Numbered from the whole stretch's first letter, positions 55-63,528 are shown. The stretch is 63,551 nt of DNA, filler included, from Stramenopiles sp. TOSAG23-6 (GCA_900128565.1; 12 parts of 12 records of this genome joined end to end with filler, not necessarily neighbours in it), one strand, 5' to 3'. Program-made: numbers and translations. The notes: generated from the letters alone by a model not told the origin.

Positions 55-1477
55 ACAAATAGATGTTGATAACATTAATTTCATAAATTGTTCAATATCA
101 TATTTCTCTAATTTATCTGGCTTTTTTTGTGTATACACAAATGATGGTAAATATGAAGTAAATCCACTTGGAGGTGGACAAAATGTTGTGAAAAACTTTT
201 GATACGTTTCAGGGTATTTTTCAAGTAATTCTTCATCGGCTTTCTGTATTGTGGAAAATATTTTTTTTTTACCGAAAAAAAAAATCGTTAGGTACAAAAT
301 TTCGTACCAAAAAAAAATAAATTTGAAATTCATAATGAAAACGTACATCAACAATATCTTTAGCTGTAGCATATTCATATCGCGTAAGAGGAAACATACT
401 AGACAATGATCTAGCATCTTTATATTCAGTGAAACATCGATTCCATGGAATCATTTTTGTTTTTAATAAAAAGTCAATTGCTTTTTCCATTGACTCTTTA
501 GATATAAAATCATCTTTTTCCATTGACTCTTTAGATATAAAATTATTCTCTTGATTCATCTCTTCTTCATTAACTATGACACCATCAGTCGTATCATCAT
601 TTGTATCATCATCAATTACTGTACCTTCGATATCACTAAATAACTTAAAAATACTTTCAAGTCTTTCTACCGCTGGACCGCTTACAACATGTAGTATGAA
701 AAAATATTTTTTTTTTCGTAAAAAAATCGTTAGGTACAAAATTTGGTACGAAAAAATAAAATTTGAAATTCATGATGAAAAACATACAGATGATAAAAGA
801 ACTAGAAGTAAAACGACATTTAGTTTTTCTTCTGATGTTTTCTGATCTTTCATATCTTTGTGTTCAACTCCACGTTCTAAAAAGCGAATGTTTCTCTCTA
901 TAATATGACCAGCTTTTATACCAGTTGGGAAAATATCGTCAAATTCAGTCATAATATAATGGAAAAACTCATGCGCTGTCGCCAGTCCATTAGATGTCTC
1001 AAATTTCGTTATAACAGATGCGGCAACACGGTCAAATTGATCAGTATTGAAATCATTCAATTCTTTTAGACTTTTCACTTCACTCGGTGCTAGCATACGT
1101 TTACTCCAGAATGTGTTTCGAAATATGTCCCTACGCTCAGATTCCTGGTTCTTTCTGTAAAACCAGTTTCCAATAAGTCCAATGATGCCAAAGAAACCAA
1201 ACATTCCCCAAGGCCAAGAAGACGGATCTACAAGGCGTTCACCCCATGTCGGCTCTTTTCCACTATTTTCAGCTGCTTTACTTGCAACTTGTTTTGAAGA
1301 TGAACAAAGTCTAGCACGTACTGCAAAATATGGTTCTATATTGTATACAGATAAACGCGATGAGTCACGATAGAAATACGTGTGTCGTCTAGAAGCTTTC
1401 GTGATTCCAAGATGAACTTGTCGGAAATATCTCGTCATTACCGCTCGTGGAACAGCTCTACTCAAGAGATGCATCAT
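55..1477 (-). CDS. Hypothetical protein, probably mitochondrial (presequence-like N-terminus, one TM helix); exons 1477-788, 688-347, 243-55; 3' end runs off the window
   Basis: Three ORF-track fragments join in frame (690, 342 and 189 nt exons) once repeat introns are removed; Arg/Ser-rich N-terminus; hydrophobic WGMFGFFGIIGLIGNWFY. Confidence 0.7.
244..346 (-). mobile_element. Introner-like intron, GT...ATAC-AG (canonical end)
   Basis: GAT|GTACGTTTTC...GTACCTAAC...CACAATACAG|AAA GCC, in frame. Confidence 0.9.
689..787 (-). mobile_element. Introner-like intron, GT...CTAC-AT
   Basis: TCT|GTATGTTTTT...CATACTACAT|GTT GTA AGC restores the frame; the next AG is out of frame. Confidence 0.85.
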
Positions 1478-1816
1478 CTCAATTAAATATTATTCGTACT
1501 TAAAACTTTAAAAGTGTTAATTGCCTATGATATCACTTTATGCCGTGCTTTATCGGAAGTAGTAATATGCAACCTTGTGTACGAAACGTGAACAACAAGG
1601 AAAAGCAAAGAATCGCGCTTAATACTATTTTGACTGACACGAAATCCGATTTTTTTTATCCGTTGAAGAAAATTTACCGGAACTCAACTGTCGAAGATGA
1701 AACTTACTTTCTTCAGTTATTCTTATAAAATTCTCACGTCTCCGTTCTCTTCACTCAGAGTGTCTCCAGGGGGTACTACTGTACTAGGTATGGTATAAAG
1801 TGACACTCTTGTTGAA

Positions 1817-7077: not shown

Positions 7078-7968
7078 TTAGACAAACACTATTTTTTTCT
7101 TTGTTATGTTGACACTTGATTTTTTAGATGGCTCAGAGGATGACAAACTTGCCTTTGCAATTACAACAGATGGTTCCATCAATGGGTATGTATACTTTTC
7201 ACTCATTACAGTAGATTCGGTATCAACATGGCCATTGCTAGCAATGTGTTTTTGTTTTGGTGAAAAACTTGCAATTGATGATTTTGTAGTTTTCATCAAC
7301 TCCTTCATTTGACGTTGCATTGTCTCACGCATATCCTTTAATTCGCGTTCTTTTTCTTCTTGTGTTTGCGGTCCTTTTTCATAATTTTCGGATGTATCTT
7401 CAGTAGAAGCTGAATGAGAGGCGTATTTATACGAAATACTATCATCTTCCCAAGGACTGACTAATGACGTTTCTCTATTTGATGTTTCATCTTTTCTTTG
7501 ATTTTGTTGCTTTGATAGTATATTAGATTTTTTATGATGTTTAGGATCCCTACGACTTAGTTTTGTTTCAAGTTTGACTTTTGAAAACTCCTTTGTCTTT
7601 GTAGGCACATGCCTTGGAGACATTTCTGAAGCCTCAGCCCATTGCACTGATACATTTTTACCCATTGTCTCTTTCGATGATGAAACAATAGTTTTTGCTG
7701 TAGGTATTGTTCCTGTGGCTGAAGGTACAGTACCAAAGGATATACATCGATCTAAAAGTATTATTCGTGTTGGAAAAGTTGTACTTATTAAAACACGGAA
7801 CACTCTTCAATGTATGTCCCACCTCCTTCAAATTCTGTATCCGAGTTAAGTAAAATATTGAATGACAATATTGTTCCATCACGGTGAATACCACATATAT
7901 AATAAAAAAATATTTTTTTTTTTTTACCGAAAATAAAACAAAAATTGTTAGGTACAAAATTTTCTACC

Positions 7969-7999
<31 letters not shown>

Positions 8000-8156
8000 T
8001 ATGATGATGAAAACGTACATGATCTTTTTGCATTTACATTTGTTGTGTTTTTTCTATTATTTTCTTCTGGAACTTCATATTTTACAAAAAATAAATCTCG
8101 AAATTGAAATGAATTAATATCAAACGCATGACGATGTGCCATTTTTTGAAATACAC
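7078..8156 (-). CDS. Fe(II)/2OG dioxygenase-like fragment followed by a low-complexity region; 5' truncated; frame break near 7790
   Basis: DLFFVKYE...RSCGIHRDGTILSFNILLN...FEGGGT after removing intron 7895-8018; link to ORF 7078-7803 unresolved. Confidence 0.55.
7895..8018 (-). mobile_element. Introner-like intron, GT...ATAT-AT, with an internal (AT)n expansion
   Basis: TCA T|GTACGTTTTC...TTATATAT|GT GGT ATT CAC gives RSCGIHRD. Confidence 0.85.
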
Positions 8157-8226
8157 GAGTATATATTATGAAAAAATATTTCAAAAAAAAAAACTTAAAT
8201 TTGTTAGGTACAAAATTTCGTACGAA
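8157..8226 (-). mobile_element. Introner-like intron, 3' half at a contig end
   Basis: TTCGTACGAAATTTTGTACCTAAC...AAATATTTTTTCATAATATATAC; exact acceptor not determinable. Confidence 0.75.
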
Positions 8227-15505: not shown

Positions 15506-16436
15506 ATGTCACAACATATAACAATATGTCCTTTCCCTCTAACTTATGCAGGGGGAAAGTGTACTTTCGACTGCTATATTCCCACGTTCTCAAAAAAAGT
15601 ATATGAAAATACTGATGACGTGCAAACAATCACTTCCGGTATTGTTTTACTACTGTTGACATTCTTACTAGTCTCCAATATGCTAAACCCAAAGAAAAGA
15701 AAGCGTATTGGGGTCAATTCAATTATTTTTGCTAGTTGGAATATACTGCTAGCCCTTTTTTTTCCTAGCGTAATATTTGGCACACGTAGTGTTGTCTGTG
15801 CAAATGACAGAGCAGTCACACAGTCTCGTTACTCTATATTTTCCTCCAAAGGATTTTGGTGTATGTGGCAAGGAATAACTCTTTCATATTTTGTATTGGT
15901 TGCAACTTATCTTTGGTGTCGAACAGCAGTACAACTTCTATATCGTGTCCATTCGCGGAAAGTAAAAACACCAAGTCGAAATAATGAAAAAAAATCTCTA
16001 TATTTATGCTTTATTTTGCCTTTTATACAAGTATGTCTAATGGCAACTTTTAGAGTGTATGGCTACAGTAGTCCTGTAATGTATTGCTTCTTTGCTAATA
16101 CTTCAAAGAGGCAGAATGATAGAGCAAGTAATTGGCAACCTTGGGTGTTTTTTTATGTGCCAATAGCAGTTTCATGGGCTTGTGGTACTTTTTGCTTAGT
16201 GAAATCAATCTTTCGAATGGCTAGTGTTATGTACGTTTTCAAAATTAAATTTCGAATTTATTTTTTTCGTACCAAATTTTGTACCTAACGAATTTCGAAT
16301 TTAAAATAGTTTTTTTCCATCCATGAGAGCCACTGGAATTGACCTCAAGAGTCTCCGTGGGCCGCTATTATATACCGTATGCTTTACAATTGTCTTAGCT
16401 CCTGTGTTCTGTGTACGTTTGTATATGAAATATCAT
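15506..16436 (+). CDS. Multi-pass GPCR-like protein (cAMP-receptor/Frizzled-like 7TM); exons 15506-16230 and 16325-16436; 3' truncated
   Basis: Serial TM helices, CMWQG and YCFF extracellular Cys pair, WVFFYVP. Confidence 0.65.
16231..16324 (+). mobile_element. Introner-like intron, GT...ATCC-AT (an in-frame GAG acceptor at 16327 is also possible)
   Basis: GTT AT|GTACGTTTTC...TTCCATCCAT|G AGA GCC. Confidence 0.8.
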
Positions 16437-16490
16437 GTACGTTTTATTTTTTTTCAAATTCGAATTTTTTTTCGTACGAAATTTTGTACC
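16437..16490 (+). mobile_element. Introner-like intron, 5' part at a contig end
   Basis: CAT|GTACGTTTT...TTCGTACGAAATTTTGTACC. Confidence 0.8.
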
Positions 16491-27246: not shown

Positions 27247-29144
27247 ATGTCTGAGGCGCCAATTACAACGCCAGATAGTACTTCAACATCTCACGTCTTT
27301 GGCACAAATAATCAGTATGCTACTTCTGAGTTTCTACTTGCATTTTTAACTGCTTTAGGTTTTACAATGTTGCTGAGTCATGCAATTCTTTGTCGATTTA
27401 AAGTGACTTGGTTATCTGAAGCCTCGTGTGCAATTTTTCTCGGCGCATTTTTTGGGGGTATCTTGGGGCTTATTCCCGGCGAAGATGTTGAAACCATGAA
27501 AGAAAAAGTAATCTTTTTCAGTCCTTCAATATTTTTCTGTGTATTTCTTCCGCCAATTATATTTGCATCTGGATATCATATGAAGGGAAGTTTCTTTTTC
27601 TTTAACATGGTCAAGATTTTAACATTTGCCGTCATTGGTACTTTCATCAGTGCTTGGATATTTGGTGTATTTCTGTGGTGTTTTGGTAAAATTGGTACGT
27701 TTTCACAATGAATTTCAAATGTAATTTTTTTGCGTACGAAATTTTGTACCTAACGAATTTTTTTACAAAAAAATAGTTTCACAGTACATGTATTTCTGTG
27801 GAATTTTCTTTTCCTGAAGCTCTGACGTTTGGTGCTCTTATTAGTGCTACTGACCCGGTTACGACTCTGGCTATCTTTGACTCTCTAAAAGTAGACCCAC
27901 ATCTTTTTTATATTGTTTTTGGTGAAAGTGTCTTGAATGATGCTGTCTCAATAGTTTTATACCATACATTTGCTAAATTTATTGGAACAACACCGAAATC
28001 TGGTACTGCTTTGTTTGCTATTCTTGACTTCTTTTTGATATTTTTTGGTTCAACTGCTGTTGGAGTTATTTGTGGTTGTTGTACTGCACTTCTTTACAAG
28101 CATATAGTAATTAATAGNNNNNNNNNNNNNNNNNNNNNNNNNNNNNNNNNNNNNNNNNNNNNNNNNNNNNNNAATGAAGTTCTAGAATTATCAGTATTTG
28201 TTATATTTGCATATGTACCATTTCTTTTAGGCGAGTGGTTATCTCTCAGTGGAATTGTTGCTATACTTTTTACAGGGATAACTATGAAGCATTATACATA
28301 TAATAATATGTCTAGAAACGCGAGAGAAAAGTCAGACACAATTATTGCCGTCTTGGCAAATATTTCAGAAACTGCTATTTTCCTTAATTTAGGTTCATCG
28401 ATGTGGAATTTTAATAGTTTTCATTTTGGTCTTGTGATTTGTGCATGTACAGTTTGTCTCCTCGCCCGTGCAGCTCATATTTATCCAATGTCTTTTATCT
28501 TAAACAAGTGTACTTCACGTTCGATTGCAAAAAATCAGCAGCATATGTTATGGTTCTCTGGTCTTCGTGGTGCTATAGCATATGCATTAGCGATGAACTT
28601 TCCTAGTGAGCATAAAGATTATGTAATTTCAACTACAATTATTATTGTCTTTGTCACTGTTGTTTTCTTTGGTGGAGCAACAGACTTTCTTTTGAACTGG
28701 CTCCGTATTCCTAGAGGACCTCAAACATTTCAAGCAAGTCATGAACGAAGTATGGTTCAATTTGTTTCTACAAATAGAATCGTACGCTTTGATAGGAGAT
28801 ATATTCAACCAATTTTATTAAGAAGACGTGGTAGCCGTAAGGTGAAACAAAACCTAAGTATGATTCAACTTGATACTGAAGAGGATACTAAAAAAGTGAC
28901 TGAAATTACTTTAACAACAAATTCTAGTTCACAATTGAATGAAGATAAACATCTAAGATGTGCATCAAGTGTTCTTGAAGAGTGGAAATCTTCAATCAAT
29001 GATTCAGATGAACATTTTTCATCTATTGATGCTGGAGACACTGTGTTGATCAATAAAGAAGTGGGCAACAGTGATAGTTTTGAAGATGAAGGTGTTTATA
29101 CATATGGCGTAATAGAAGCCCAAACACTAAATGGGAGTACCTAA
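27247..29144 (+). CDS. Na+/H+ exchanger, CPA1 (NHE/NHX) family; exons 27247-27694 and 27790-29144
   Basis: FLPPIIFASGY, FGALISATDPV, VFGESVLNDAVSIVLY, WFSGLRGAIAYALA. Confidence 0.95.
27695..27789 (+). mobile_element. Introner-like intron, GT...GTAC-AT
   Basis: ATT G|GTACGTTTTC...CACAGTACAT|GT ATT TCT gives KIGISVEF; the CAG at 27782-27784 is out of frame with this donor. Confidence 0.8.
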
Positions 29145-33072: not shown

Positions 33073-33161
33073 TATTTTGGAAAAATATTTCAAAAAAAAT
33101 TCGTTAGGTACAAAATTTCGTACGAAACAAAATTCGAATTTGAAAAAAAAATAAATCATAC
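33073..33161 (-). mobile_element. Introner-like intron, nearly complete, cut at a contig end
   Basis: T|GTATGATTT...TTCGTACGAAATTTTGTACCTAAC...TTCCAAAATA. Confidence 0.85.
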
Positions 33162-34621: not shown

Positions 34622-37600
34622 TTAATCTTCAATATCCTTTATATTTAATAATATATTGTGTAGTGCAATTTTAGATGCTGGTTGAATTAACACATCTGTA
34701 AAGAATGCACTAGTACTACTAATCCTTGATTGGTTCAATTCTGTATTATTTCGTGTATTTCGTCTAACCACACTATTTAGAGTTGCTACAGTCATTATAT
34801 CATTTATATCTTCTTCTGTAAAATCTACGATATTTTGGTACCAAAAACGATCACCATCACGAATACGGCGAAATTGCTCAACAATGATTGAATCTGCAAC
34901 TAATCCCAGAGTTTTATTGTAGGGTGAAAATGATTTGTTTGTGGAAATATTTTTTTCGTACAATTTGTTAGGTACGGAATTTCATATGAAAACAAATTAA
35001 AATGGAAGAAAAATAAAACATACATGATTTGTTTGTGGAAATGAAATGATGTGTAGTTGTTGTTGCTTGTGCCATCATACCTACAATTGCATCAATATTT
35101 GACAGTTGGGTGGTGTTTTCAATATGGTACAAACTGCGAAGCTTATTTTCAATAGAATCTTGAATTTGATTAACTGAAACTGAATGTTTGTTATTTTCAA
35201 TAGAATCTTGTATTTGATTAACTGAAACTGAATGTTTGTTGTAATACTTTGACATGTGTAGGAAGTCTTGTAATCCCTATTGTGAAAAAGTGATATTCTT
35301 TTAAGTTTAAAAAAAATCGTTAGATACAAAATTTCATAATAAAAAAATAATTTGAAATTCATGATGAAAACGTACATGGTCCCTTCCACGCTGAATATCC
35401 AAAGAAGTAAGGTCAAGACCACCTTGTGAGGGTAAACCCAACAAAGTATTTCTAATAGCTGAAACTGTCCGCACATCCAATGCCTGAGCTGGCAATATAG
35501 TCATTCCATGAAGAATGGCATCAATTATTCTTTTCTGAGTACCGATATCACTATATTCATCAATATCAAGAAAAAAACTATTTGATAGATGTAGTGTTGA
35601 TACACCACCTAAACAATTATTCAATATGTTACTATCATTCTTATATAAAGTATGTTCGTAACATAGAAGAAGCACATCATTGATTTGACTGTGAGGTAAT
35701 CGAAAGGCGGCAGTTGAAAATTCAGTAAGAACTCCTGGATCAATACTAGAATTATAACCCATATATGGAAAAGTTCCATTTACTCCTAATGCATTGTGTC
35801 CTAGAAGTGCAGGTAAATATTCATTATAAGTTATATGCTGCAATTCACTTTCTACGAATCGTCGCGATTCCTTGAACAACAATTCGTCGAGTACGATCGA
35901 ATCCATTGTAATACTATTATTATATCGTTTTAGTTCATGTCTAATCGCAGAAGCCCATCGGTTGTGTTCCCTATGCCATAGTGTATGCAATGCAAGTAAT
36001 CCTGGCTGTATGTTAGCTCGAGTGTCACCTGCAAGTGAAAGTTTTTCGGTTGGCTTTGCTGTAGGATTATCATTTGGAAGTCTATTTTGATTCAACATCA
36101 GTGAATATGGACATCTAGATATCGATTCTCTTCTTCTTGGGTGACTTTTGAATGTATCGTCTGTGAGACTGGCATTTGTATGTCGCCTATTTGCAAGTAA
36201 ACCAAACTTTCCAAGTCGCAATGATTTCTGGCGAATTCTATTAGAACCGTAAATAGTAGACCCATCTAAAAATGATGAAACTTTATTTGTCTGCTCTCGA
36301 ATAGGGTGTTCTCTACCATTATAAGAATTATTTGTCAAATTTTTATAATGATATATTGAACGTCTAAACCGGATGACTCGATTACCTTTTCCTTCTTTAT
36401 CAAATGTTTTATCACCTTTAGGTACCTTTATTGCAAAGTTTTCACTTGGTGAAGAATTGGGTTGAGGTGTAGTAAGACTAATATCATGAGCTAAAAATTG
36501 TCCAAAGTGAACCATCATATCGTTTAAATGTCTTGGAGACCATAATAAATCAATGTGCTTATTCGTTTTTGTATCATTCATTATCATTGATGATAAAGAA
36601 TTACTAATCTTTCTCGCACTGGGTCGATCTCGACCTGCTGGAGAATCATACTTATCACTATATGCAGCAGGGAAAAGACGTCTTAGAGAATCCCCTGCAC
36701 TTCCCCAATGCAAATGTTTCATATTGTTTCCGAATCCATCAGGAGATCTCCACTTGCTATCTCTTGTAATTGTATCATTTTTATACTTTATATACTTTGT
36801 AAAATACTTATAAATACGGTCCGCTGCACGACGAGAAAGTTTCTGAAAGGCAATGTCGTCTATTGTGTCACTATATTGAAACACGAAACTATTTAATTTC
36901 CTTTTTGGTACCTTTGATTTCATTGTTGGGCATGCATTGGGTGATGGAGAATGACAAAATTCACTCCTTTTTAGAAACACATTTTCTGTATCTTCAATGA
37001 TAGTAGATTTTTTTGTTTTTTTTATATCAAATTCTGTACCTAACATTTGTTTCTTAGTAGTATAGTGAAGAACATTTGAATCTGCACAGACTTTAATCTC
37101 TGTGTTTTGAGTTTCAATAAGAAATTCTCGTTCAATTATTGGAATATTGGATGAACCAATTTCTTTACAATTAGTTATATTTTCATCAATATTGCAAGAT
37201 CCACGGAGAAGGGCATTTCTTGTCCATCGTACTATAAGTCTAAGAGTACTCGAATACTGACCAAGACCAAGTATTGTGAAAAAATATTTCAATATTTGAA
37301 ATTCATTAGGTGAGAAATATTCTTAGTCAAAAAAAAACAAGTTTGAAATTAAATTGGACCACATACAAAATGTGCTGTTGATTCACTTTGACCTAAAAAC
37401 CCAGAGTTGGTTCCAATTTGAGTTGTTTGCATGAAAACCCAGGATTTAAGTTTATTCATTGTATAAATAGATAATTTTGCACCAATGCTGTCTCTACAAG
37501 AAACACCACAACAATCTTTCACTTTTATGCGTAACCATTGATTTCTCTGGGATGCATCAAGTCTATGATTTCCTTTCCCATTGTATAGAGCAGGAGGATG

Positions 37601-39953
37601 ATCTTGATGTCGAATCACAACAATATCTTGAAGTCCATTTCTATCAGCATCAAATACAAGCAATCCACGTCCTTCAATTGTATCATTAGAACCTAGGACT
37701 TTAGATGATGCATTTATAATGCTAAAACTATTACTCATACTTTCAATACAATACTTACTCTTATATTTAGAAGTCATCCACCATGAATGTATGTTAGGCT
37801 CAACCATGTACTGTGAACAGATGTTTTTTTAGTAAACAAAAATGTTAGGTAAAAATTTGCGTATGAAAAAAATCTACACTTTAATTCAATTTTGAAAATG
37901 TACATATAGTCTGCTAAAACTTTCCAAGAATTGTTTGCGGTCGGTATATAGTACATTGTTGGATTATTATTCCAGAATACATCATCATAGGTTGTCTCCG
38001 GGAATATCATACCATTTGCAACGATCAGCTCTAAAAAGCCATCATTGTTTGCATCAATCCAAGAAGTACCCCAACCCCAACCACTATAAAGCAAATTATG
38101 GAAAGATTCATAAATAGAATGTCTCGCATCGACAATATGACCAAGGTTAGTTGATGTATCACATGGATATTCTAGTATTGCATTGTTCAATGTTTTTAAA
38201 CTTTTTTGATCAAAGTGAGAAAATTTACGATTTCCTAAATTTCTATACATTACATTACCGGAAAGTTCAAAATAAGATGTAAAATCTCTCTCTTGAAGAT
38301 CTTCATTACCATATATCGAAGTAACAAAAATATCTAAGAGGCCATCTTGATCAAAATCTGCTACAGCGACGCCCATGCCATTTCTTTCAAATCCCAGACC
38401 AGAGTCTCTGGTTCCCTCGATAAATGTACCATTTCCATTATTCCAAAATATTGCAGATGTTCCAAAGTCTGCAGCGATAAATAAATCAGGCCAATCGTCA
38501 TTATCAAAGTCTGCAAATACAGGTGTAAATGAAAATACTCCACCAGGGGGCTTTGTGCCATCGTGTCCATATTGCTTTGAATCTCTACTATTAATTCTTC
38601 TTGAATAACCTTCAATGTCGACGCCTGCACTACTTGTTGTATCCTCAAAATAACCCGGAGCTTGTTTTCCTAGGTTTCTCAGCAAACGTGAATTACTCCA
38701 TCGCCAAGTTTTTAGATTCCTAGATATTCTTTCAGAAGAAGAATGATCATCATGTATACTAGATATTCTTTCAGAAGAAGAATGATCATCATGTATATTG
38801 ATTTTAAATCCATCTTTTATTGATTGTGAAAAAATATTTTTTTTAGTAAAAAATTATTGTTAGGTATACAATTTGGTACAAAAAAAAAAATTGAAATGGA
38901 AACGTACATTAATTGTTCGACATTCAACATGAAGTAAAAACGCCATTCTGTTACATATAAATCAAGGTATCCATCACCATCATAGTCAGCAGTTGCAATA
39001 GAAACACCAGATGTCAGAGAGCTATCATCTTCCAAAATAGCTGTAGCATTTCGTTCAAGCCCAAGTTCAATAAAGTGAGGAATTTTCTGTTTTGTGTTTG
39101 AATTGTTCTGTTTTGTGTTTGAATTGTTCATTTGATTAATAAAGAGTAAGTGACGGTTACCTCCAACAGTTGTAACGTACAAATCAAGATCACCATCATT
39201 ATCAGCATCAAACCAAAGAGCACCATTTGTCGAGGCTCCTGAAGAACGTAATCCTTTAGATAAACCAAATTTAGTAGTTACATCTTGAAAACCAGGAGTA
39301 TGACAAGTTTTATCGTTAGAGTCAATTTGTAATTTATGTATTAAATCTCCGCACGTATTACGGTAGAGGACACCATTACCAAAACTATTGATATCCTTTG
39401 AAATTTTAGAAACACCATTCCGAACCATGGCTTGCGTAAAAAATAAATCTGTCCAACCATCTCCATCGAAATCTCCAGCAGCAACTCCACCAGTCATTCT
39501 CTCAACTATGCAATTTGCTCCAAAGTCTGTACCCATCAACTCTCTTTTTAAATAATTCAAAAATATATCTTCCTCTTGAATATCAGCAAGTTTAAACTCA
39601 GTTTTGATTATCTCTGATATATGATTGAACATCGGTTCATCAAAAATACAGTTTGGTGCAAAGACTGGAAGCGACTGAAAATGTACCAAATTCGAAGAAA
39701 TTGGTGCAACCTCTTCGAATTTGGGAGAATGAATGGATACAGTCTTCTGAATAGTATTCTCATTGTCCAATAATCCAAGTAATTCCAACAACTTTTCATT
39801 TTCCTCGTCTGAAAGCTCATCTGATATTTGTCTTAATTGTCTCTCCAACTGCTCCTCACACAACACACGGTCAGTTAAATCTATACAGAAGGACAAGGAG
39901 GGTCTACTACACGAAGCTAAAGAAACTAGTAGTAGTATGGTAAGTACTTTCAT
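34622..39953 (-). CDS. Secreted FG-GAP/ASPIC-UnbV (CRTAC1-like) protein fused to an animal-type haem peroxidase; 6 exons, about 1617 aa
   Basis: Exons 39953-38908, 38818-37904, 37805-37367, 37268-35376, 35276-35024, 34929-34622 join in frame; DxDxDGxxDL repeats, QS..AHFGLG, GQFLAHD, GDTRAN, AFRLPHSQ, IQRGRDHGL, RDGDRFWY. Confidence 0.85.
34930..35023 (-). mobile_element. Introner-like intron ending AT, flanked by a 19-nt direct repeat (acceptor register ambiguous)
   Basis: T|GTATGTTTT...GTACCTAAC...ATTTCCACAAACAAATCAT|TT TCA. Confidence 0.7.
35277..35375 (-). mobile_element. Introner-like intron, canonical GT...AATAG
   Basis: Restores IQRGRDH|GL. Confidence 0.92.
37269..37366 (-). mobile_element. 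Introner-like intron, GT...ATAC-TT
   Basis: CAT TTT|GTATGTGG...CACAATACTT|GGT CTT GGT restores the ASPIC HF|GLG motif. Confidence 0.9.
37806..37903 (-). mobile_element. Introner-like intron, GT...GTAC-AT
   Basis: TAT AT|GTACATTTTC...CACAGTACAT|G GTT GAG; using the upstream CAG leads to a stop. Confidence 0.85.
38819..38907 (-). mobile_element. Introner-like intron, GT...ATCA-AT
   Basis: TTA AT|GTACGTTTCC...CACAATCAAT|A AAA GAT, in frame. Confidence 0.8.
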
Positions 39954-40254: not shown

Positions 40255-41121
40255 ATGGATTACTTTCAAGTTATACCAATTTCAAATCAGCAAATAAGCA
40301 ATGGTGTGATGTTTCCTTTGGCTCTGGCTCCTCTTCCTGGTTCAGATAAATCTTTTGACTCACTTGTGAAAGCTATCAAAAAGCACCGTAAGCACATCTT
40401 GACCACTACGTTTCAGCACGGTGCTCTCCTACTTCGAGGGTGGACAAATGATTCTCCTGAGGGTTTTGCCGATGTTAGTGAAGCGCTTAATTTAGAAAAG
40501 TATCCGTATGTCGGTGGAGCTGCACCTCGCACGAATGTAGTTCGAGACGTCGTTTTTACCACGAATGAATCACCACCTGAAAAGCCAATACCCTTCCATC
40601 ATGAAATTTCCCAAGTACCAAACCCACCTTCATACATTATGTTTTATTGTAACGTTGAACCAAATCAGGGAGGTCATACTCCTATTATTCAATCAGCTGA
40701 AGTTTGCGATTATTTGTTTCGAAAGTACCCTGAGTTTGCAAAAGAGCTAGAAAGCAAAGGTGTAAAATATATTAGGGTTATGCCAAAAGAGACAGATAAT
40801 GATTCTCCAATCGGACGCTCGTGGAAAGAAACATTTCAATGTGAAACTAAGGTTGATGCAGAAAGAGCAATGTCTAAAATTGGAAGCACATGGGAATGGT
40901 TATCTAATGGTGATGTTCGTGTTACATCTGCTGTAGTACCAGCATTGTACGTTGTCCACTTTTACTTTTGTTTTTTTTTTTCATACGAAATTTTGTACCT
41001 AACTGTAAAACCTAAAAAATCAAATTTTTGAAATATTTTCCTAAAATACTTACGTATAGATAAACGAAGTGGTCGTAAAATGTTTTTTAACTCAGTTGTT
41101 GCAGCATACACTGGATGGATT
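40255..41121 (+). CDS. TauD/TfdA clavaminate-synthase-like dioxygenase; exons 40255-40946 and 41052-41121; 3' truncated
   Basis: YVGGAAPRT, NESPPEKPIPFHHE, GGHTP, FFNSVVAAYTGW. Confidence 0.9.
40947..41051 (+). mobile_element. Introner-like intron, GT...ATAC-TT
   Basis: GCA TT|GTACGTTG...AAAATACTT|A CGT ATA GAT; the next AG gives an immediate TAA. Confidence 0.88.
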
Positions 41122-41186
41122 GTACGTTTTATTTTTTTTTTTTTNACAAAAAAATCGAATTTTTTTTTTTATAAAAATTTTGTACC
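41122..41186 (+). mobile_element. Introner-like intron, 5' part at a contig end
   Basis: ATT|GTACGTTTT...AAAATTTTTGTACC. Confidence 0.75.
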
Positions 41187-41286: not shown

Positions 41287-41364
41287 AAAATATTTCAAAA
41301 AAAAATCGTTAGGTACAAAATTTCGTACGAAAAAAAAAACTTTTGAAAAAAAAATAAAACATAC
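41287..41364 (-). mobile_element. Introner-like intron cut at a contig end
   Basis: T|GTATGTTTT...TTCGTACGAAATTTTGTACCTAAC. Confidence 0.85.
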
Positions 41365-42586
41365 ATTGTGATTGTAAGCGTCGATGTGCCACGTCATCAC
41401 TTAGAGTATTTCGACTCATTGCCAGAGCATCAAATTCATCAATGAATAAGATTGATGGTTGCATGTCAACTGCTTGAGAGAAAATAGAAACTAGTGCTTT
41501 TTCACTCCCACCATTTATTGTGAAAAAATATTTTTTTTTTAGTAAAAAAATCATTAGGTACAAAATTTTCTACCAAAAAAAAAATTAAAATTCATAATGA
41601 AAACGTACAGTCCACTTACTTAATAGATCGGCTATATAAATTGTGATATATGTCATTAATTTTTGAAGACTTTGATAAATAATCGTCAATAATGAAAATA
41701 TGATAGTGTATATACAAGCATTTTAATTTGAATAATGTTGATCACAACGATAACCTACGGACAGGCTGAAATAAGAGGTCTTTGTGATTCAGAAGCAGTG
41801 GCTTCCGCAAGACTGGTTTTTCCGGTACCCTGTCCTGGAAAAAAATAATTTAAAAATTTGATTTTTTTCTTAGCTACAAAATTTCCTATATATATAAAAA
41901 CTATAAAAACAAAATTGAAATTCATGATGTATGTAAACGTACCGGTGGCCCATATAAGAGTATTGTAGTAGGCATTTTACGACAACCTGTAAGTAGCCTT
42001 GGATCAATTAAAGCAGACATTGTACAACAATCTCGCAATGTATTTTGGAAAAATATTTCAAAAAAAAAAACTTAAATTTGTTAGGTACAATCGCGTTATT
42101 CGCCCCAATGATATCTTCAAAGCAACGATTTGGAAATGATGCAGTAACTATTGGTTCTTTCTTGGTATCAGTTATTGTTTTTTTTGTATTGTTTGTGCCT
42201 TCTTCAAGCACTGGTTGTTGTTGATCTCTGTCAATACTTGCCTTGGCGTTATATGGCGGATAAATCCTTTGACTTTTGATGGACGGTTGAAATGATGCAG
42301 ACGAAGACATGGTGGTAGTATCAAACTGACGTTTATTCCCAATGATTTGTCCCTCGATTTCAGATAACCGTTTCGATACCATAGTAATACAGTTATCACA
42401 AACTATGCGAGTGCTATCACTCACTCGGAACTGTTCTAAATCATCTTGTCTGGAAACACAATGTTCTAATAGAGCGACAGCTTTGTTATACGAAGCATAC
42501 GACTGTAAAACTCCGCTGGTGTTATTACTGGATCCACTTAAGCCTTTTGTCACATATGACATTGCATGAGCTATTACAGAATCCAT
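41365..42586 (-). CDS. AAA+ ATPase of the katanin/VPS4/spastin type with an MIT-like N-terminus; multi-exon, 3' truncated
   Basis: FEDIIG, ILLYGPP|GTGKT, DLLSKWT|GGSEK, PSILFIDEFDAL. Confidence 0.88.
41513..41608 (-). mobile_element. Introner-like intron, GT...ATAA-AT
   Basis: TGG ACT|GTACGTTTTC...CACAATAAAT|GGT GGG AGT GAA restores SKWxGxSEK; the next AG gives TGA. Confidence 0.9.
41634..41758 (-). other. Non-family intron, probably GTAGGT...TTTATAT (alternative GTCCGT...TAG, 41632-41762)
   Basis: Needed to join ISAC(P) to ADLLSKW. Confidence 0.65.
41830..41942 (-). mobile_element. Diverged Introner-like intron, GT...GGAC-AG, inside the Walker A motif
   Basis: CCA CCG|GTACGTTTAC...CCAGGACAG|GGT ACC GGA AAA ACC. 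Confidence 0.92.
42038..42091 (-). mobile_element. Introner-like element, 3' half only
   Basis: Exon runs directly into TTGTACCTAAC...CCAAAATACAT; donor half absent. Confidence 0.75.
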
Positions 42587-43051: not shown

Positions 43052-46000
43052 ATGCGCTACTCAATATTACAAATCATTATGCTTCTTCTATTGTTGTTTC
43101 CATCGATGTGCATTGCTGCAGATGCTGTAGATAAAGCCGATGATGCAAAAGAAACAACCTCGACCGAAAGAAAAACAAAAGTTCCCCCGACACCAGAAGG
43201 GAAAGCGGGTAAACCAGTACCAGAAGGGGAAACGGGCGAACCAGCACCAGAAGAGAAAGCACCAGAAGGGAAAGCGGGTGAAACAGCACCAGAAGGGAAA
43301 GCGGGTGAAACAGCACCAGAAGAGAAAGCACCAGAAGGGAAAGCGGGCGAACCAGCACCAGAAGGGAAAGCGGGTGAACCACCAGAAGGGAAAGCGGGTG
43401 AAACAGCACCAGAAGAGAAAGCGGGTGAAACAGCAGAAGGGAAAGCGGGCGAACCAGCACCAGAAGAGAAAGCACCAGAAGAGAAAGCACTAGAAGGGAA
43501 AGCGGGCGAACCAGCGCCAGAAGAGAAAGCAGGTGAACCAGCACCCACAGAGAAAGCAAGCAAAACATCACTAAAAGAATTAGTAATCGAAGGCAAACTA
43601 AAAGAAGAAGTTGCAAAAGCAGCTTTTGAGTTTTCGGAATCACCAATTTATGGAGCCAAAATCGTTGGCTCTGGATATAATGTACATTTTCAAAATTGAA
43701 GTTTTTTTTTCGTACCAAATTTTGTACCTAACAAAGAAATTGAATTTAAAATATTTTTTGATTATACATGCTGTGACTGGAATAATTCAGGGTCAAATTC
43801 TTTTGCATCCACTTCACGATGATGATTTGTACGTTTTGATTATGAATTTCAAATTTATGTTTTTTTTTCGTACGAAATTTTGTACCTAACAAATTTCGAA
43901 TTTAATTTGTTTTTACAATACATGTATGAACGTCTGAAAGAAGTAAACGGATATGAAGTACCACCTGGGGTGGTTTATTCTGACCAAAATAAAGGTGAAT
44001 TTGCGGAAGTGCCACATACATTTTCAAGTATTATAGAGTTTGCAGATGAAATTGCACGTGTATGTTTTCAAAATATTTCAAAAAAAACTTTTTTTGGTAG
44101 AAAATTTTGTACCTAACGATTTTTTTACTAAAAAAATATTTTTCACAATACGTTCAAATGGATTCAGTGCTACGGAAGGAATGTATATGTTAGACCGAAA
44201 GGTTATGGAAGTTCGAAAAATGATGCTTTATTCTGACATTACTTTGAAAAAAACAAATTATAATTTGTATACTTTGAAATTGGATAGTACGTTTTCAAAA
44301 TTAAATTTCGATTTTTTTTAGTACCAAATTTTGTACCTAACGAACTTTAAATTTGATATATTTTTTCACAATACTTCCAACGTCAACCCAATGTCGCAAC
44401 CTAGAAATATACTGAAGAGCACATTTGTAGAGGATGTTTTTCATTTACCTGATTGCTATTTTGCAGATTGCAATATAAAAGACGATGCAACAATACAACA
44501 AAAAGGTTGCAGAAACACTTTAGGTAGGAAAACATTTATCGAGTTTGGATTGAGTGAACTTGGTTCTGAAGATAAACCTACTCCAACATGCCTCGATTGG
44601 CTTACGAGTAAAACTAAAGATAAAGATCAGAAGAGAAAAGCTTTATTGGAGGCTGAAAAGAAATCCAAAAGTGTGAATAAAAGAAGAGGAAAATATTCGA
44701 AAAAAGTTGTCCCTATAGATTATGAAAATTGCGAATCAGTTTTCTTTGAAGATATTGAGGTAAGTGAAGAAGATGAGAAATTAATAACTAGCAAATATCC
44801 ATGTGATCCTAAAAAACCAAAAGAGAAGTGTGTAAAATTTGGGCAAGATACAGGTACAATTTGTAATATGCATGATTTTCATAAAATAGCCAAGTTTATT
44901 AACAGGTGGGGAACACATGTAATAAAACAAGCTTCATTTGGTGGTTCTATAGAAACAGTTGTACGTACGCGTAAAAACAGCCAATGGCCATATATTATTC
45001 AAGGTCAAGAAGTAATGTTTAACAGAGCCCCTGAAAATTTCATACCGGGTTTGGTAGCACGACATGCAGTATTCGATGGAAAATTTGCTCCACCTGGTTT
45101 TCCGCTTTCATTTCCATACAACACAACAAATAGTCATATTTCAATGGCTACTACAGATTTGGCTCGGCCTGAATCAGAGCGTGATGAAGCCAGTGAAATG
45201 GGAGTTCAATCAATTGAATACAATTTTAGAGGTGGCGTAAGGCCCCCGGTTCTAACAGAAAAATTGAGAAATACCGATGTAGCAGATTGGATTACAACTC
45301 TACCAGAAAATCCTGGCATTCTTGATGAATTTACAACTATGATTCCGATTGAAAACACTTTTTTACATCCAACAATGATGACCCAGATGATGACACTTTT
45401 AGAGAAAGAAAAAATGAAGAAAGAAGACAAATTAAAGTTCGAACAAAATGAAGCATTAAAAATGGCTCCAGATCTCCGTCCTGGTACGAGAATACTTAAA
45501 CCCGGCACGGGGCCATTTGGAGAGAATCAGGTAGAAGGTATTGAAGTGGCATATATACCAACTTATGACGAAGTAAGAGGAATTACTCCACCAGCTTTAC
45601 CAGTTGACGAAAACAAACAAGTTCCACCAGAAGAAAAAACACCAGAAGAAAACAAACAAGTTCCACCAGAAGAAAAAAAACAAGTTCCACCAGAAGAAAA
45701 AACACCAGAAGAAAAAAAACAAGTTCCACCAGGGAAGCAATTTCGATTTCGGGCTCCTCCCAAGGAAGAAAAGGAAACAAAAGGTGGAAAAGGGGCAGAT
45801 GATGAAAATAAGAAATCAAAAGGAGCAGATGAAGAAAAAAAACAAGAGGAGGAAAAAATTAAACGGAAAATGGTTATGATGAAAAATTTCCGATCTCTTC
45901 TGCTTACTAAGAGTGCTGTATTAGGTAATATGCTTGATTCAGTAGTAAGAATGAAAAGACAGATGGATTTTCAGGAGCAGCGGATGCATGGAACAATAAA

Positions 46001-47499: not shown

Positions 47500-48368
47500 T
47501 TAAAAAATAATTCCAAGGCCTCCTTCTTGACATGATGATCGTATAGGTATTGTAAAAACAATTTTGTCAGATTGATCATCTGATTCATGTATTTTGGAAA
47601 AATATTTTAGAAAAAAATCGTTAGGTACAAAATTTCGTACGAAACAAAAATAGAATTTGAAAAAAAAATAAAACCTCCATAGTACTTATTTCTGAACAAA
47701 GGAACTCCAGACTCTGTCCAGGATTCTGACAAGTCGCTAAAAGAAAGTTCTATTTCTTCATTGTCATTTATTTCTCGCCAAAAACCATGCATGTGTAATC
47801 TAACTGTTTGCATTCGTTTGCTGGACCATACATCAGTGTATATTTTCTTTCCCCTCCATTTCGCGACGCATATATTACAATCAGAAACACTTAGAATGAG
47901 TATACCCTCACGATAATCTATCGATTTAGTAATATTTCTTGGAGGATTCCAATGAAATCGACCCTCAGATATCTCAGTGATTAGAGTTTTTAATTTCTTT
48001 TTCTTATGTACTTTTTCTGATATTTTCATTGTACCATTAGGGTTAGGGTTTACACATTTCGACGTTTTCCCACTAAATGTTTTTCCTCGAATTCTGCTTA
48101 ACCATTCAGTGGAAGAAATAGAATGTTTATTCGTAGCATTTAAATAACTCTTAGACAAACCTGATTTTAACGTCGGTTTATACATGTTTTTCTTTTTTTG
48201 TTTTCGACAACAAGATTTTCCAGCACAATACTTCTTACTCCTAACATTTGTGTTACTTGTATCATAAATACTTTGAGAAGTAGTTGAAGATGCCGTGACA
48301 TCAGATGTTTCTTCACTACTACTCTCATCTTGGGATTCAATGTCTTGACTAGAAATAGTATTTCCCAT
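47500..48368 (-). CDS. Hypothetical protein, possible N-myristoylation (MGNTIS); exons about 48368-47679 and 47586-47500
   Basis: ATG ORF, then a family intron, then a 29-codon terminal exon. Confidence 0.6.
47587..47678 (-). mobile_element. Introner-like element with altered donor (GGAGGTTTT...ATAC-AT)
   Basis: Family core intact; GTAC replaced by GGAG. Confidence 0.75.
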
Positions 48369-49302: not shown

Positions 49303-49390
49303 GTACGTTTTATTTTTGTCAATTTCGAATTTATTTTTCGTACGAAATTTTGTACCTAACGATTTTTTTTTGAAATATTTTTCCAAAATA
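49303..49390 (+). mobile_element. Introner-like intron cut at a contig end
   Basis: GTACGTTTT...TTCGTACGAAATTTTGTACCTAAC...TTCCAAAATA. Confidence 0.85.
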
Positions 49391-49517
49391 NNNNNNNNNN
49401 NNNNNNNNNNNNNNNNNNNNNNNNNNNNNNNNNNTTAATTAATTAANNNNNNNNNNNNNNNNNNNNNNNNNNNNNNNNNNNNNNNNNNNNGCACTGTGGG
49501 CTATAAAAACCTTAACT

Positions 49518-57591: not shown

Positions 57592-58729
57592 NNNNNNNNN
57601 NNNNNNNNNNNNNNNNNNNNNNNNNNNNNNNNNNNTTAATTAATTAANNNNNNNNNNNNNNNNNNNNNNNNNNNNNNNNNNNNNNNNNNNNACACTGTTC
57701 AACACGAAATCAAAGTGAAAATACTAAAACACGAAATCAAAGTGAAAATGGTACAACACGAAGTGTACAAAATGTACAAAATGTAAGTGACAATGTTCAA
57801 AAATTATTCGATATCGGAGAAGAATGGAATGCAATTGTTAATAAAATCATCTTAATGGTATTATCTGATGCTTTACCAGGTGGTACTGATACTATATCAA
57901 GCAAAAATTTTGAAAAAAATGGGCAATCGAATTCACATTTTGAAAACAATTTAAAATTAAATTCAAAAGTGAAAAAAAAAATACAAAAAATAAGAAATGT
58001 GTCTGAAATTTTATGGGTTGAACAAGACACAAAACGTCGAATATTTCGTGTTATCGGAGTGTTGTGTGTATTGGGTGGAATCACTGAAGTAATACGGGAA
58101 GGCGGTCGCGTTCAAATGTTTGTTTTTCAATTTCAAATTTATAATTTATAACTTTTTTTTTTTTTTTTGAAAATTTTTACAGAAAAAAAATTTTTTTTTT
58201 TTTCAAAATTTTTTTTTTTTTTCATATGAAATTTTCATAGAAAACAAATTCTGAATTTTTTTTTTTCAATGTTTTACAATTTTTGTACATTCATCAATTG
58301 TATACATTGTTAATACCTAACCCTCATCATAATACTTACATAAATTGACACGAAATACAGATCAATTGATAATGGTTCGCTCAATCAATTTGGCGTTTTG
58401 ATTGTGGAAGCAACATTTAGGGTTAGGGTTGTTCTTGATAACAACACGAAATCTAAAAATAATCAAAATATGTCTTCCCATTCACTTTCATCATCAAGCC
58501 TAAGTATGAATACTATAGAGAACCCTAACCCTAACACAAAAAATACAACACGAAATCATAGAGATGAGTGCATTACGTTGGACAAGAGTGTAATTGAAAG
58601 TATTCCATGTATGTCATTTAAAAAAAAATGATTTCAATATTATTTTTTTGAACAACAAAATTGAAATTTTTTTTTTTCTTTTTACGATTAAAATTTTTTT
58701 TTTTTTTTTTTTTATAGTAAATTTTTTAC

Positions 58730-58772
<43 letters not shown>

Positions 58773-61770: not shown

Positions 61771-62459
61771 AACACTGATTGCGGCTTTGAGTTACCCGTT
61801 ACATGAACCCTAAACCGCACTCCACCCTCCGCTGCCATCACTTTCGTCTGACCATCTTCGTAAAGCCTTTCGTCCCCGTATATATTGTAATCCTCAAACG
61901 ACTCCATTGATGCGCACAATGATTAAACAATCCAAAGATAACAAAAGCTGGTGAAAAGACACTTTCCTCAAGTGCAATTATCTGGCTTCATGTGCAATTT
62001 CCGCTTTGCAATGTGTAAAACAGATCGCAATAAAAGATCGCAATAAAATATTATATTAATATATAATTATATAAAATTAATTAATAATAAAAAAAACATA
62101 ATAAAAAAAAATAATATTATTATTTTGAAAAGAGAAAAGAGAAGAAGAAGGTGTAACGGATAACAACAGTGGTGGGTGGGTGATTGTAAAATTATTATAA
62201 TATAATTTACTTATTAAAAAATATAATTCTTGGTATATTTTTTTAGGTAAAATTATACCATTATACCTACTATAACTACTATCAACTAAACCATTCAACA
62301 AAAAGTACTGACTTTTTTATTTACTAATTAACAAGCTCAACAAGCAATAAAACGATTTGNNNNNNNNNNNNNNNNNNNNNNNNNNNNNNNNNNNNNNNNN
62401 NNNTTAATTAATTAANNNNNNNNNNNNNNNNNNNNNNNNNNNNNNNNNNNNNNNNNNNN

Positions 62460-63528
62460 CCTCATGAAAACGCCATTGAAGAACTTCGGAAACTGCAAAT
62501 ATTAAAGACGTCATCAGATGATCCAGATACTGTATGGCTTCATAAAAGTTTTCAAGTACAGTTGAAAACAGCTGTAAGTGAGTTGTGCACACCATGGCAA
62601 CCTGTGACAGAAGTTCAAGACGGAGAAGCAAAAATTCCTACAGAGGCATCTCTCATGGAAATGGCAACAAAGAAGTGGGATGCCGTTTTGCATTATTTGG
62701 TTGGCTCGTGGGACTCATGCGAGAGGAAACGAGTAAAAATTCAAAGAAAGACGAAATATCAACAAGTAAAGGTAAAGGTAAAGGAGGAGTAAAATTAACA
62801 GTAACAGTGAGACGTGCTGCACTTGACAAAGAATCTTCTTTATCATCTATGAAATCTGGTGGTCGAGGACCCCGTTTGATTATAACACATAAAAATGAAA
62901 CCATCACATCTGCAGGATATGAATTTTTGCTTCAAGAAACTAATGCTCAAATTTGGAGATTTTTAAAACGTTATTTTCAAGTATTAAATGGTAGAGATGC
63001 AGATATGGCATCTGCCATTAGTTTAGTGTTTAGGCTAGGATTTTGTGAATTAGGAAAAGGATATCAAACACAATCTTTGTCTCCTACTCAGTTCTCCATG
63101 CTTTCACATTTATCCGATTTTGGTCTAGTTCATATCCAAGATGTCAACGTTCATGGGGAGGGCAAATATCGCGGGAAAATTGGTTTAGTTCGTTGTTTTT
63201 ATCCAACACCTTTCGGTATAAATCTTTTAACAAATCATACTCTACAATCGAATGTACGTTTTCATCATGAATTTCGGAATAATTTTTTTTTCGTACGAAA
63301 TTTTGTACCTAACGATTTTTTTTTCATGTGAATATAGATATAAATGATTCATCGATAACTCGTACTACTTCTCAAACGAGATGCCATTTATTTGTGGAGA
63401 CGAACTTTCGAATATATGCATATACTACATCAGACCTTCATGTGTACATGTTAAAATTATTTGCTAATTTGTTATATCGACTTCCCAATATGGTTTTAGC
63501 GGTGATAAATAGAAAGTCCGCGACTTAT
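62460..63528 (+). CDS. TFB2: TFIIH subunit p52/Tfb2, partial; frame break near 62710; intron 63254-63339
   Basis: WDAVLHYLVG, ITSAGYEFLLQ, DFGLV, FYPT, FVETNFRIYAYT, LPNMV. Confidence 0.9.
63254..63339 (+). mobile_element. Introner-like intron, GT...ATAG-AT
   Basis: AAT|GTACGTTTTC...GAATATAGAT|ATA AAT; splicing at the AG gives ATA TAA (stop). Confidence 0.82.

Follow-up and report, generated by a model that had tools for sequence, protein, structure and literature searches.

Short repeated introns with mostly non-AG 3' ends in genes of an AT-rich marine eukaryote, probably removed by an AG-independent 3' cut

How can a reading frame be restored across introns that, for the most part, do not end in AG? 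The question is raised by a family of short repeated elements in the window (the whole stretch of DNA that was analysed; 63,551 bases, 34% G+C, 1,495 of them N), whose copies begin with GTAY, interrupt unrelated genes and carry near their 3' end an AC-like word followed by two variable nucleotides (NN). A first-pass annotation, made from the sequence without database searches, had proposed that the splicing machinery of this organism has relaxed recognition of the 3' dinucleotide. Our analysis points in the same direction: the family is probably a short, non-autonomous introner that has spread in genes and that the spliceosome would remove with a 3' cut independent of AG. Copies are named below by strand sign and donor coordinate (e.g. 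-37366, +16231), and all of them are listed in Table 1.

A dispersed family in sense orientation

The core word of the family (AAATTTTGTACCTAA, with at most 1 mismatch) occurs 21 times in the window against 0.05 occurrences expected (100 shuffles), and 19 of the 21 matches lie inside family copies, the remaining two (37029+ and 58719+) lying outside. The match at 37029-37043 (+) has 1 mismatch and runs antisense within a peroxidase coding exon (...MLGTEFDIK...); it was judged a chance match and not a copy. In total the family comprises about 28 members, of which 19 are complete, 8 are cut by ends of assembly pieces or of the window and 1 is degenerate, without its 5' half. The 19 complete copies were recovered where they had first been reported, from 244-346 (-) to 63254-63339 (+). 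The density is about one copy per 2.2 kilobases, about 12 unrelated genes are interrupted, and intron lengths are about 90-120 nucleotides (nt). The consensus reads GTAYGTTTTCA..ATGAATTTCAAA..T-run..CGTACGAAATTTTGTACCTAACGA..T/A-runs..ATATTTTTTCACAATAC+NN, and individual copies are 63-91% identical to it.

All 19 complete copies are sense-oriented between open frames of the host open reading frame (ORF) (2^-19 = 1.9e-6), and reading through any of them leads to a stop in 5-30 codons. Each of the 7 cut copies that retain the 5' donor is likewise preceded by an open frame (30-176 codons). The host genes, which include those for an AAA ATPase, TFIIH p52, a Na+/H+ exchanger and a peroxidase, all retain long open exons and conserved motifs, and apart from the family copies the genes of the window are nearly without introns. 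Six piece ends fall within family copies, so the repeat family also breaks or limits the assembly.

Frame restoration and terminal dinucleotides

GTAY forms the first bases of all 19 complete copies. At the 3' ends placed by the first-pass annotation, the terminal dinucleotides are AT in 12, TT in 3, GT in 1 and AG in 3, a tally that was reproduced independently. The frame rule was defined as removal from the G of GTAY to 2 nt past the AC-like end word (AC+2), the words ATAA, ATCA, ATCC and ATAT occurring in some copies in place of an AC-terminated word. Removal by this rule rejoins the flanking frames in 15 of the 17 copies with an assignable end word (P of at least 15/17 at a chance of 1/3 = 4.5e-6); 14 of the 15 were flagged as in phase by script and -41942 was counted via its LLYGPP|GTGKT peptide, and the call at -47685 is weak, as its downstream frames are open for 29 versus 28 codons. 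Two complete copies, -35023 and +63254, were left out of the 17 because many in-phase ends are open to them.

Three copies have gained an AG on or adjoining the rule position, an outcome to be looked for where the 3' NN belongs to the intron and AG retains an advantage. Among the 14 non-AG copies, no AG occurs between the conserved CTAA (described below) and the junction in 10, and in the remaining 4 the AG and the donor are in different phases.

Junctions fixed by homologous proteins

Three junctions are fixed by homology, two of them at non-AG ends. At -37366, the motif H[FIL]GLG spans the junction in 6/6 ASPIC-domain homologues (P0002, P0003, P0010, P0068, P0108, P0115); the window reads ...AHF|GLGQ... 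and, like P0108 and P0010, has W 15 residues past the first G, and the tblastn alignment of the homologues runs up to the donor. The reported HF|GLG junction (37269-37366, ending TT) is thus borne out.

For the AAA ATPase gene, 30 modules spanning Walker A to Walker B were taken from 16 homologues of 150 listed. Their length is 63 residues in 27/30 and none is shorter; G stands 28 residues before the end of Walker B in 30/30, and W, Y or F stands at -30 in 24/30. The W is coded 5' of the intron at -41608 and the G 3' of it, and the spacing of W at -30 and G at -28 is reached only by a 96-nt removal, so the proposed SKWT|GGSEK junction (41513-41608, ending AT) is confirmed by the spacing of all 30 modules. 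At -41942 the junction lies inside GPP|GTGKT. GPPG.GK is present in 29/30 modules, and Pfam places GTGKT at position 8 of the AAA profile; GPPGTGKT results when the cuts fall precisely at G1 and AC+2 (register 0), and register -2 would yield GPQ, which occurs in 0/30 modules. This canonical intron therefore obeys the AC+NN rule, as had been claimed.

The other junctions are located less closely. GYN|AVTG (+43682) had been put forward as fixed by a conserved motif; a related-locus search with the 1011-residue MACPF exon of this gene and protein searches with the same exon and with exon 1 found no relatives. The same had been said of PAL|RID..RKMFFN (+40947), where the Pfam match to TauD ends at residue 187 of 242 and the 24-residue following exon matched nothing, so that the TauD junction could not be pinned. 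Pfam coordinates place the junctions of the Na+/H+ exchanger and Tfb2 genes only to within several residues, and the FG-GAP repeats around -37903 and -38907 are too repetitive to pin theirs.

The AAA gene also holds a single intron unlike the family (41632-41762, -), which is canonical if read as GTCCGT...TATAG. Spliced so, the AAA module would have 61 residues; with an end at ...CACAATTT (41638), 6 nt earlier, it would have exactly 63, a hint that non-AG ends may extend beyond the family.

Splice signals

An alignment was built from 16 of the 19 complete copies (mean column identity 64%; the set used wherever 16 copies are mentioned in this section). Its invariant or near-invariant columns are G1, T2, the T-run, the core and the C-T-A-A of TACCTAAC; CTAA is invariant in 16/16 copies, even the most diverged, and is followed by a T-rich tract. 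These are the places that a U2-type spliceosome reads, which argues for a spliceosomal interpretation, and only a cut in front of G1 makes GTAYGT a consensus donor. The distance from CTAA to the intron end is 34-51 nt in 16 copies (for -37366 the script picked another CTAA, at 54 nt). As this distance varies, whereas that from the AC word does not, the 3' site, if it is measured, would be measured from the terminal word.

RNAalifold predicted 0 consensus pairs for the 16 copies, and pairing of the intron ends of the euglenid or Amoebophrya type, through 8-20-nt inverted repeats or a +4..+6/-8..-6 stem, was rejected on this result. In single folds of 6 of the 19 copies, z-scores ranged from -3.2 to +1.4 and the ends (5' GUA with 3' UAC) paired over 3-4 base pairs (bp) in 3/6, with the NN free. 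A search of the whole window against Rfam matched no family.

The U12 branch word normally lies 10-20 nt from the 3' end. Two family copies can be read as AT...AC, and ACCTAAC in the core faintly recalls the U12 branch word, but a U12-type intron was rejected: the branch-like word is 34-51 nt away from the 3' end and the donor RTATCCTT is absent at all family copies. Of 10 RTATCCTT matches in the window (4.6 expected), the nearest is 197 nt from a family donor, in agreement with the first-pass statement that this donor is missing from the family.

Canonical splice sites near the copies

In nine copies (-787, -8018, -38907, -41608 and -47685 on the minus strand; +16231, +27695, +43829 and +44287 on the plus strand), no register that leaves the mRNA unchanged gives GT-AG, GC-AG or AT-AC, and -37366, +40947 and +44060 attain only TT-AC or GT-AC. 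Cryptic sites were scanned for as in-frame, stop-free pairs, with GT or GC donors allowed between -45 and +30 and AG acceptors between -30 and +45. Such pairs were found for 12 of the 14 non-AG copies, and every pair alters exon length. The smallest changes (in nt) are -3 for +16231, -6 for -37903, +9 for +27695, -12 for -787, -37366 and -41608, +/-15 for +40947, -21 for +43682, -24 for +44287, -27 for +44060, -39 for -38907 and -54 for +43829; -8018 and -47685 have no GT/GC-AG pair in the scanned range. The scan is blank for -41942 because its 90-nt look-ahead misses pairs adjoining very short exons. At -37366 the canonical in-frame options delete at least 12 nt including the conserved GLG, and at -41608 they remove 12-54 nt and break the W-x-G spacing. 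The first-pass annotation had named splicing at nearby canonical pairs with in-frame products as the result that would speak against it. Such pairs do exist for most non-AG copies, yet they damage conserved residues at both pinned non-AG junctions.

A public gene model covers the same locus. In a protein search with the peroxidase exon, P0001 (a gene model whose source label starts with GSMAST32) was the sole near-identical database protein; its exons are letter-identical to the window apart from gaps. The model begins only after the non-canonical -37366, splices the canonical -35375 as here, and puts a larger GT-AG intron in the place of -35023, thereby losing the GM...LG residues present in P0002 and P0003. 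Compared with 34625-37046 (-), two more in-frame stretches (14 and 18 residues) are removed from the long exon. P0001 looks like a gene model that was made to fit canonical sites. Its label suggests that the organism is a marine stramenopile of the MAST kind.

A 2-nt direct repeat at the borders

In 8 of 16 copies the last 2 bases of the intron repeat the 2 exon bases that precede GT (permuted flanks, P = 0.009), and 23 of 32 single bases match between the flank and the terminal NN (permutation P = 0.0009). Among copies with a non-AT end, 3/6 flanks are identical (TT/TT twice, GT/GT; P = 0.007). Copies with unequal repeats include -346, -787, -41608, -47685, +27695, +43829 and +44287. The 5' flank is AT in 7/17 complete copies and in 5/7 cut copies with a 5' end. 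This border repeat looks like a 2-bp target-site duplication that prefers AT.

Decay of the duplication with copy age was tested across the copies and found no support; the pattern is the opposite of simple decay. The elements may also have arisen by reverse splicing of a GT...AT intron, since the repeats do not track copy age and no empty site was seen.

Proposed removal and its alternatives

Taken together, these features would fit the following course of events. An element of about 90-120 bp, non-autonomous and mobile, would have been dispersed among the genes of an AT-rich marine eukaryote, each copy starting with a GTAYGT donor and carrying a terminal ...CACARTAC word, a U-rich tract and, about 34-51 nt ahead of the end, a TACCTAAC that resembles a branch site. 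On insertion, 2 bp of the target (AT in most cases) would be duplicated. The spliceosome would then excise the element together with one copy of the duplication, cutting at G1 and 2 nt beyond the terminal AC, and the reading frame would be rebuilt whichever 2 nt (AT, TT, GT or AG) were present; the 3' cut would be placed by position relative to the conserved end of the intron itself and not by AG. A stronger version, which we advance tentatively and hold to be possible rather than probable, is that the second step of splicing takes no account of an AG, that the 3' cut is measured 2 nt past an ...RTAC that can pair with the 5' GUA(C), that a transposon with a 2-bp duplication thereby makes nearly any exon position removable and that nearly all introns of this otherwise intron-poor genome are of this kind. 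Pairing of 5' GUA with 3' UAC as the measuring device is offered as an idea only.

Several observations weigh against this account. If 2 bp are duplicated on insertion, removal of the element plus 2 nt rebuilds the ORF by construction; the frame rule thus proves precise insertion into intact genes and not the position of the cut, and cuts shifted by 1-2 nt would yield identical mRNA in 14/17 copies. The register is discriminated by one copy only, -41942, and this is a canonical GT-AG copy. Nor does the duplication look simple: the repeats are unequal in those copies that resemble the consensus most (0.86-0.91 identity) but equal in several diverged ones, and the terminal inverted repeat is only GTA...TAC (GTA(C)...(G)TAC), with no consensus pairing. 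The reported restoration of frames at AC+2 stands for the 15 copies given above and fails or is ambiguous at the other 2 of the 17: -35375 ends at +0, with AG occupying the AC position, and -8018 joins a 34-codon frame at AC+2 and a 78-codon frame at AC+0. The 34-codon frame has a faint likeness to 2OG-dioxygenases (E 0.21, below the cut-off) and a search of PDB with it gave no match. The 3' ends of -35023 and +63254 are not fixable, and in the degenerate copy at 42038-42088 neither a GT with AC+2 nor any GT-AG pair rejoins the frame. At +16231 a canonical AG lies 3 nt downstream and would cost one codon only. A search for spliced protein or cDNA relatives found none. A look through sequencing runs listed six RNA runs, all but one of them poly(A), that contain 5-17% of the sampled words of 41287-49390; this overlap was given no weight. 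The proposal of relaxed 3' dinucleotide recognition is partly supported and survives as the best reading of the GTAYGT donor, the CTAA present in 16/16 aligned copies, the register of -41942 and the absence of the U12 donor; the frame rule would also follow from the duplication alone.

The closest competitor moves both cuts 2 (or 1) nt upstream, so that removal is precise, the intron reads NN-GTAY...AC (commonly a U2-like AT-AC intron) and the 3' NN is kept in the mRNA. In register -2 the mRNA is identical in 7/17 copies, with AT-AC ends for -37903 and +43682, TT-AC for -37366 and +40947 and GT-AC for +44060; the AC word is also the better conserved 3' feature, and an A as first base with a C as last is a known isosteric alternative to G-G (PMC13326754). 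Such introns, however, would have a varying 5' dinucleotide (AT, TT, CT, CG, AA, TG, GT, TA), their GTAYGT would fall at +3 to +8 and fit no known donor, the end words ATAA, ATCA, ATCC and ATAT lack the terminal AC, and -41942 would read GPQGTGKT, unlike any of the 30 AAA modules; we regard this arrangement as unlikely. Splicing might instead use nearby cryptic GT/GC-AG pairs, with small insertions or deletions in the proteins and non-AG ends that reflect insertion only. The 12 of 14 non-AG copies with an in-frame stop-free pair, the three smallest changes among them (-3, -6 and +9 nt, at +16231, -37903 and +27695) and the larger GT-AG intron of P0001 around -35023 speak for it. Every pair changes exon length, though; those at the pinned non-AG junctions delete GLG or break a W-x-G spacing kept in 30/30 modules, -8018 and -47685 lack any pair in range, the P0001 intron drops the GM...LG kept in P0002 and P0003 in a model that starts only after -37366, and GTAYGT and CTAA would have no reason for conservation in register. 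These points make it improbable.

That the copies are never removed, being recent insertions that kill their host genes or that lie in unexpressed alleles of a degenerating genome, is compatible with the frame rule taken alone and with the fragmentary assembly, and pseudogenised dynein genes are reported for one lineage in a paper on related single-cell genomes (PMC5778133). It is very improbable given that about 12 unrelated host genes keep long open exons and conserved motifs, that 19/19 copies are sense-oriented and that the conserved columns coincide with splice-signal positions; copies 63-91% identical to the consensus are, moreover, not all recent. Excision from DNA, in the manner of ciliate internal eliminated sequences bounded by short direct repeats, would account for the 2-nt repeats, one copy of which would remain. 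We give it hardly any credence: the conserved positions are the spliceosomal signals GTAYGT, CTAA and U tract, DNA excision would not need strict sense orientation, and the genes are read in the standard code. To our knowledge, DNA-level excision of this sort is not known in this group. Spliceosomal removal with an AG-independent 3' cut remains the explanation that we prefer.

Relation to known systems

Transposon-derived introns that take their second splice site from a target duplication are established, with non-canonical borders in some lineages (PMC11282704). The introners of Micromonas pusilla and Aureococcus anophagefferens resemble the present family in being short, non-autonomous repeats that occur in many unrelated genes and leave the ORF exactly restored, with the element supplying one splice site and the target-site duplication the other; their ends are canonical, the 3' AG coming from a 3-nt duplication (PMC11282704), whereas the family here has a 2-nt duplication of almost any sequence and ends in AT, TT or GT in 16/19 copies.

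A likeness in the acceptor is found in the larvaceans Fritillaria pellucida and F. borealis, where AT is the commonest 3' acceptor (44% and 34%, respectively), set in a YAY triplet and used by a U2-type spliceosome in which U2AF is duplicated (PMC13326754), and where the introns derive from miniature inverted-repeat transposable elements (PMC13326754, PMC11282704). The last three bases are similarly CAT or TAT (YAY) in 11/19 copies of the window, with ends taken as first annotated, and a U-rich tract is shared. The main Fritillaria classes begin with AG (AG/AC, AG/AT) and make up most introns of an animal genome (PMC13326754), in contrast to GTAYGT in one protist family; a Fritillaria-type 5' AG with a preceding YAY was not encountered, as the 5' end is GT in all copies and YAY precedes it in 5/19.

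The introners of the dinoflagellate Amoebophrya are also repeated non-canonical introns of a marine protist in which direct repeats across the borders make those borders ambiguous. They have direct repeats of 3-5 nt over non-canonical borders and inverted repeats of 8-20 nt, their termini are mostly AG-A(N), their ends are paired by the inverted repeats, and no U1 was found (PMC7789003). The family in the window differs in its 2-nt repeat, in having only GTA/TAC pairable and in its canonical donor. Nonconventional introns of euglenids show variable non-canonical borders and duplication-like junction repeats as well, with a stable stem uniting the ends and no pyrimidine tract (PMC11282704, PMC4770533, PMC12501133); the present introns, unlike these, have GT, a branch word and a U tract and no consensus structure.

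A literature search, supplements lying outside its scope, turned up no account of the family, none of introners of the type GT...AT/TT/GT and none of non-canonical splicing in MAST-type stramenopiles; the paper on related single-cell genomes mentions introns in the methods only (PMC5778133). The first-pass annotation knew of no description of the GT-NT class, but close precedents exist in Fritillaria, Amoebophrya and other introners. It is plausible that we are dealing with a transposon-derived non-canonical intron of a known general kind, in a lineage for which no described case was found; it is less unprecedented than was first held.

Should transcripts confirm the junctions, the family would provide a separate example of 3' splice sites chosen without regard to AG, found in a stramenopile if the label of P0001 is right. 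With donor and branch site canonical and the acceptor alone free, it would then offer a natural system for studying how the spliceosome measures the 3' site, and it would show a route by which a 2-bp-duplication transposon can create introns anywhere. Gene finders that require GT-AG break these genes, and gene counts and protein sets from such single-cell genomes are likely too low and partly wrong, because models of the P0001 type skip or delete sequence at such introns. Large introner surveys look into families that have unfamiliar splice sites only if RNA alignments are available, according to the methods of PMC12130899; a survey whose starting point is annotated or familiar splice sites would miss families of this sort.

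Inventory of copies and setting in the window

Table 1. Copies of the intron family and assembly spacers in the window. Ends are written as first and last two intron bases; "flank" is the two exon bases before the donor.
Feature	Position	Strand	Details
Complete copy	244..346	-	GT...AG (ATAC+AG); flank AT; in phase at AC+2; 103 nt
Complete copy	689..787	-	GT...AT; flank CT; in phase; 99 nt
Complete copy	7895..8018	-	Internal (AT)n run; AT end at either 7895 or 7897; two candidate registers
Complete copy, diverged	34930..35023	-	94-, 112- and 115-nt removals all in phase, so 3' end not fixable
Complete copy	35277..35375	-	Canonical GT...AG; AG in place of AC word (rule +0); junction RGRDH|GLQDF; homologues P0002, P0003; P0001 splices alike
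Complete copy	37269..37366	-	GT...TT; flank TT; junction HF|GLG pinned by homologues
Complete copy	37806..37903	-	GT...AT (AT...AC in register -2); AG 5 nt upstream out of phase
Complete copy	38819..38907	-	GT...AT; end word ATCA
Complete copy	41513..41608	-	GT...AT; end word ATAA; junction SKWT|GGSEK pinned
Complete copy, most diverged	41830..41942	-	GT...AG (GGAC+AG); junction GPP|GTGKT; earlier AG 5 nt upstream passed over
Complete copy	47587..47685	-	GT...AT; downstream frame weakly determined
Complete copy	16231..16324	+	GT...AT; end word ATCC; canonical AG 3 nt further would cost one codon
Complete copy	27695..27789	+	Na+/H+ exchanger gene; GT...AT; upstream AGs at -13 and -5 out of phase
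Complete copy	40947..41051	+	TauD-like gene; GT...TT; flank TT
Complete copy	43682..43769	+	GT...AT (AT...AC in register -2)
Complete copy	43829..43923	+	GT...AT; flank TT
Complete copy	44060..44153	+	GT...GT; flank GT
Complete copy	44287..44376	+	GT...TT; flank TA; single register possible
Complete copy	63254..63339	+	TFIIH p52/Tfb2 gene; 3' part diverged; end as placed by the first-pass annotation, not fixable
Cut copy	1..54	-	Truncated by window start
Cut copy	8161..8226	-	5' half lost at assembly-piece end
Cut copy	16437..16490	+	Truncated by piece end
Cut copy	33073..33161	-	Truncated by piece end; cap-methyltransferase-like gene
Cut copy	41122..41186	+	Truncated by piece end
Cut copy	41287..41364	-	Truncated by piece end; AAA ATPase gene
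Cut copy	49303..49390	+	Truncated by piece end
Cut copy	63529..63551	+	Truncated by window end
Degenerate copy	42038..42088	-	AAA gene; without 5' half; core-internal GTACC would have to be the donor
Spacer pairs	8227-8326, 16491-16590, 24742-24841, 32973-33072, 41187-41286, 49391-49490, 57592-57691, then each 1192 bases up to 62459

Two of the minus-strand copies have unusual internal structure. The longest copy, -8018 (122-124 nt), includes, at 7940-7990 (-), an (AT)n microsatellite together with long runs of T and of A. Within 34930-35060 (-), a 19-nt direct repeat (ATTTCCACAAACAAATCAT) stands just 5' of the donor of -35023 and again in the 3' part of the intron; it may be the remnant of a tandem or nested insertion, and because of it the true 3' end of -35023 is unreadable.

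The window contains 11 pairs of 44-N runs at a spacing of 12 bases, and these 12 bases are TTAATTAATTAA where inspected. On account of these run pairs enclosing TTAATTAATTAA, the window is a string of assembly pieces and not a single molecule; 7 pieces are of about 8.1-8.2 kilobases and the next 5 of 1092 bases. Its DNA is eukaryotic, with the standard code and long single-exon ORFs. Pfam families were assigned to a Sel1/PAN protein, a copia-like polyprotein (RVT_2), a MAC/perforin protein, a polycystin-like channel and a cyclic-nucleotide-gated channel; to a protein kinase, the Na+/H+ exchanger, the TauD-like dioxygenase and an FG-GAP/ASPIC/haem-peroxidase protein; and to two methyltransferases, TFIIH p52 (Tfb2) and a BTB protein.

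A 20-nt core pattern of the family was searched against metagenomes and matched 27 loci, of which only one, L003, holds a family copy; none of 3 viral loci is a family copy. The copy in L003 (87-190, on a 1076-base metagenome contig) is the only one found outside the window and splits a short ORF ending ...RGQQIKVLSMLYRKARTKN; the remainder of this chimeric contig looks unrelated and is adaptor-like at its end. Two further metagenome contigs, L005 and L002 (50-65% G+C, unrelated), carry tandem arrays of the palindrome GGTACAAAATTTTGTACC, which is also the centre of the intron family; the sharing is probably due to chance.

The copia-like ORF is the only transposon ORF in the window. It is a 2279-codon open frame at 17253-24092 (-) with a copia-type reverse transcriptase (RVT_2), probably an intact long terminal repeat retrotransposon polyprotein that is unrelated to the intron family. 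In the peroxidase gene, a tandem duplication of about 48 nt at 35150-35250 (-) codes for NKHSVSVNQIQDSIEN twice.

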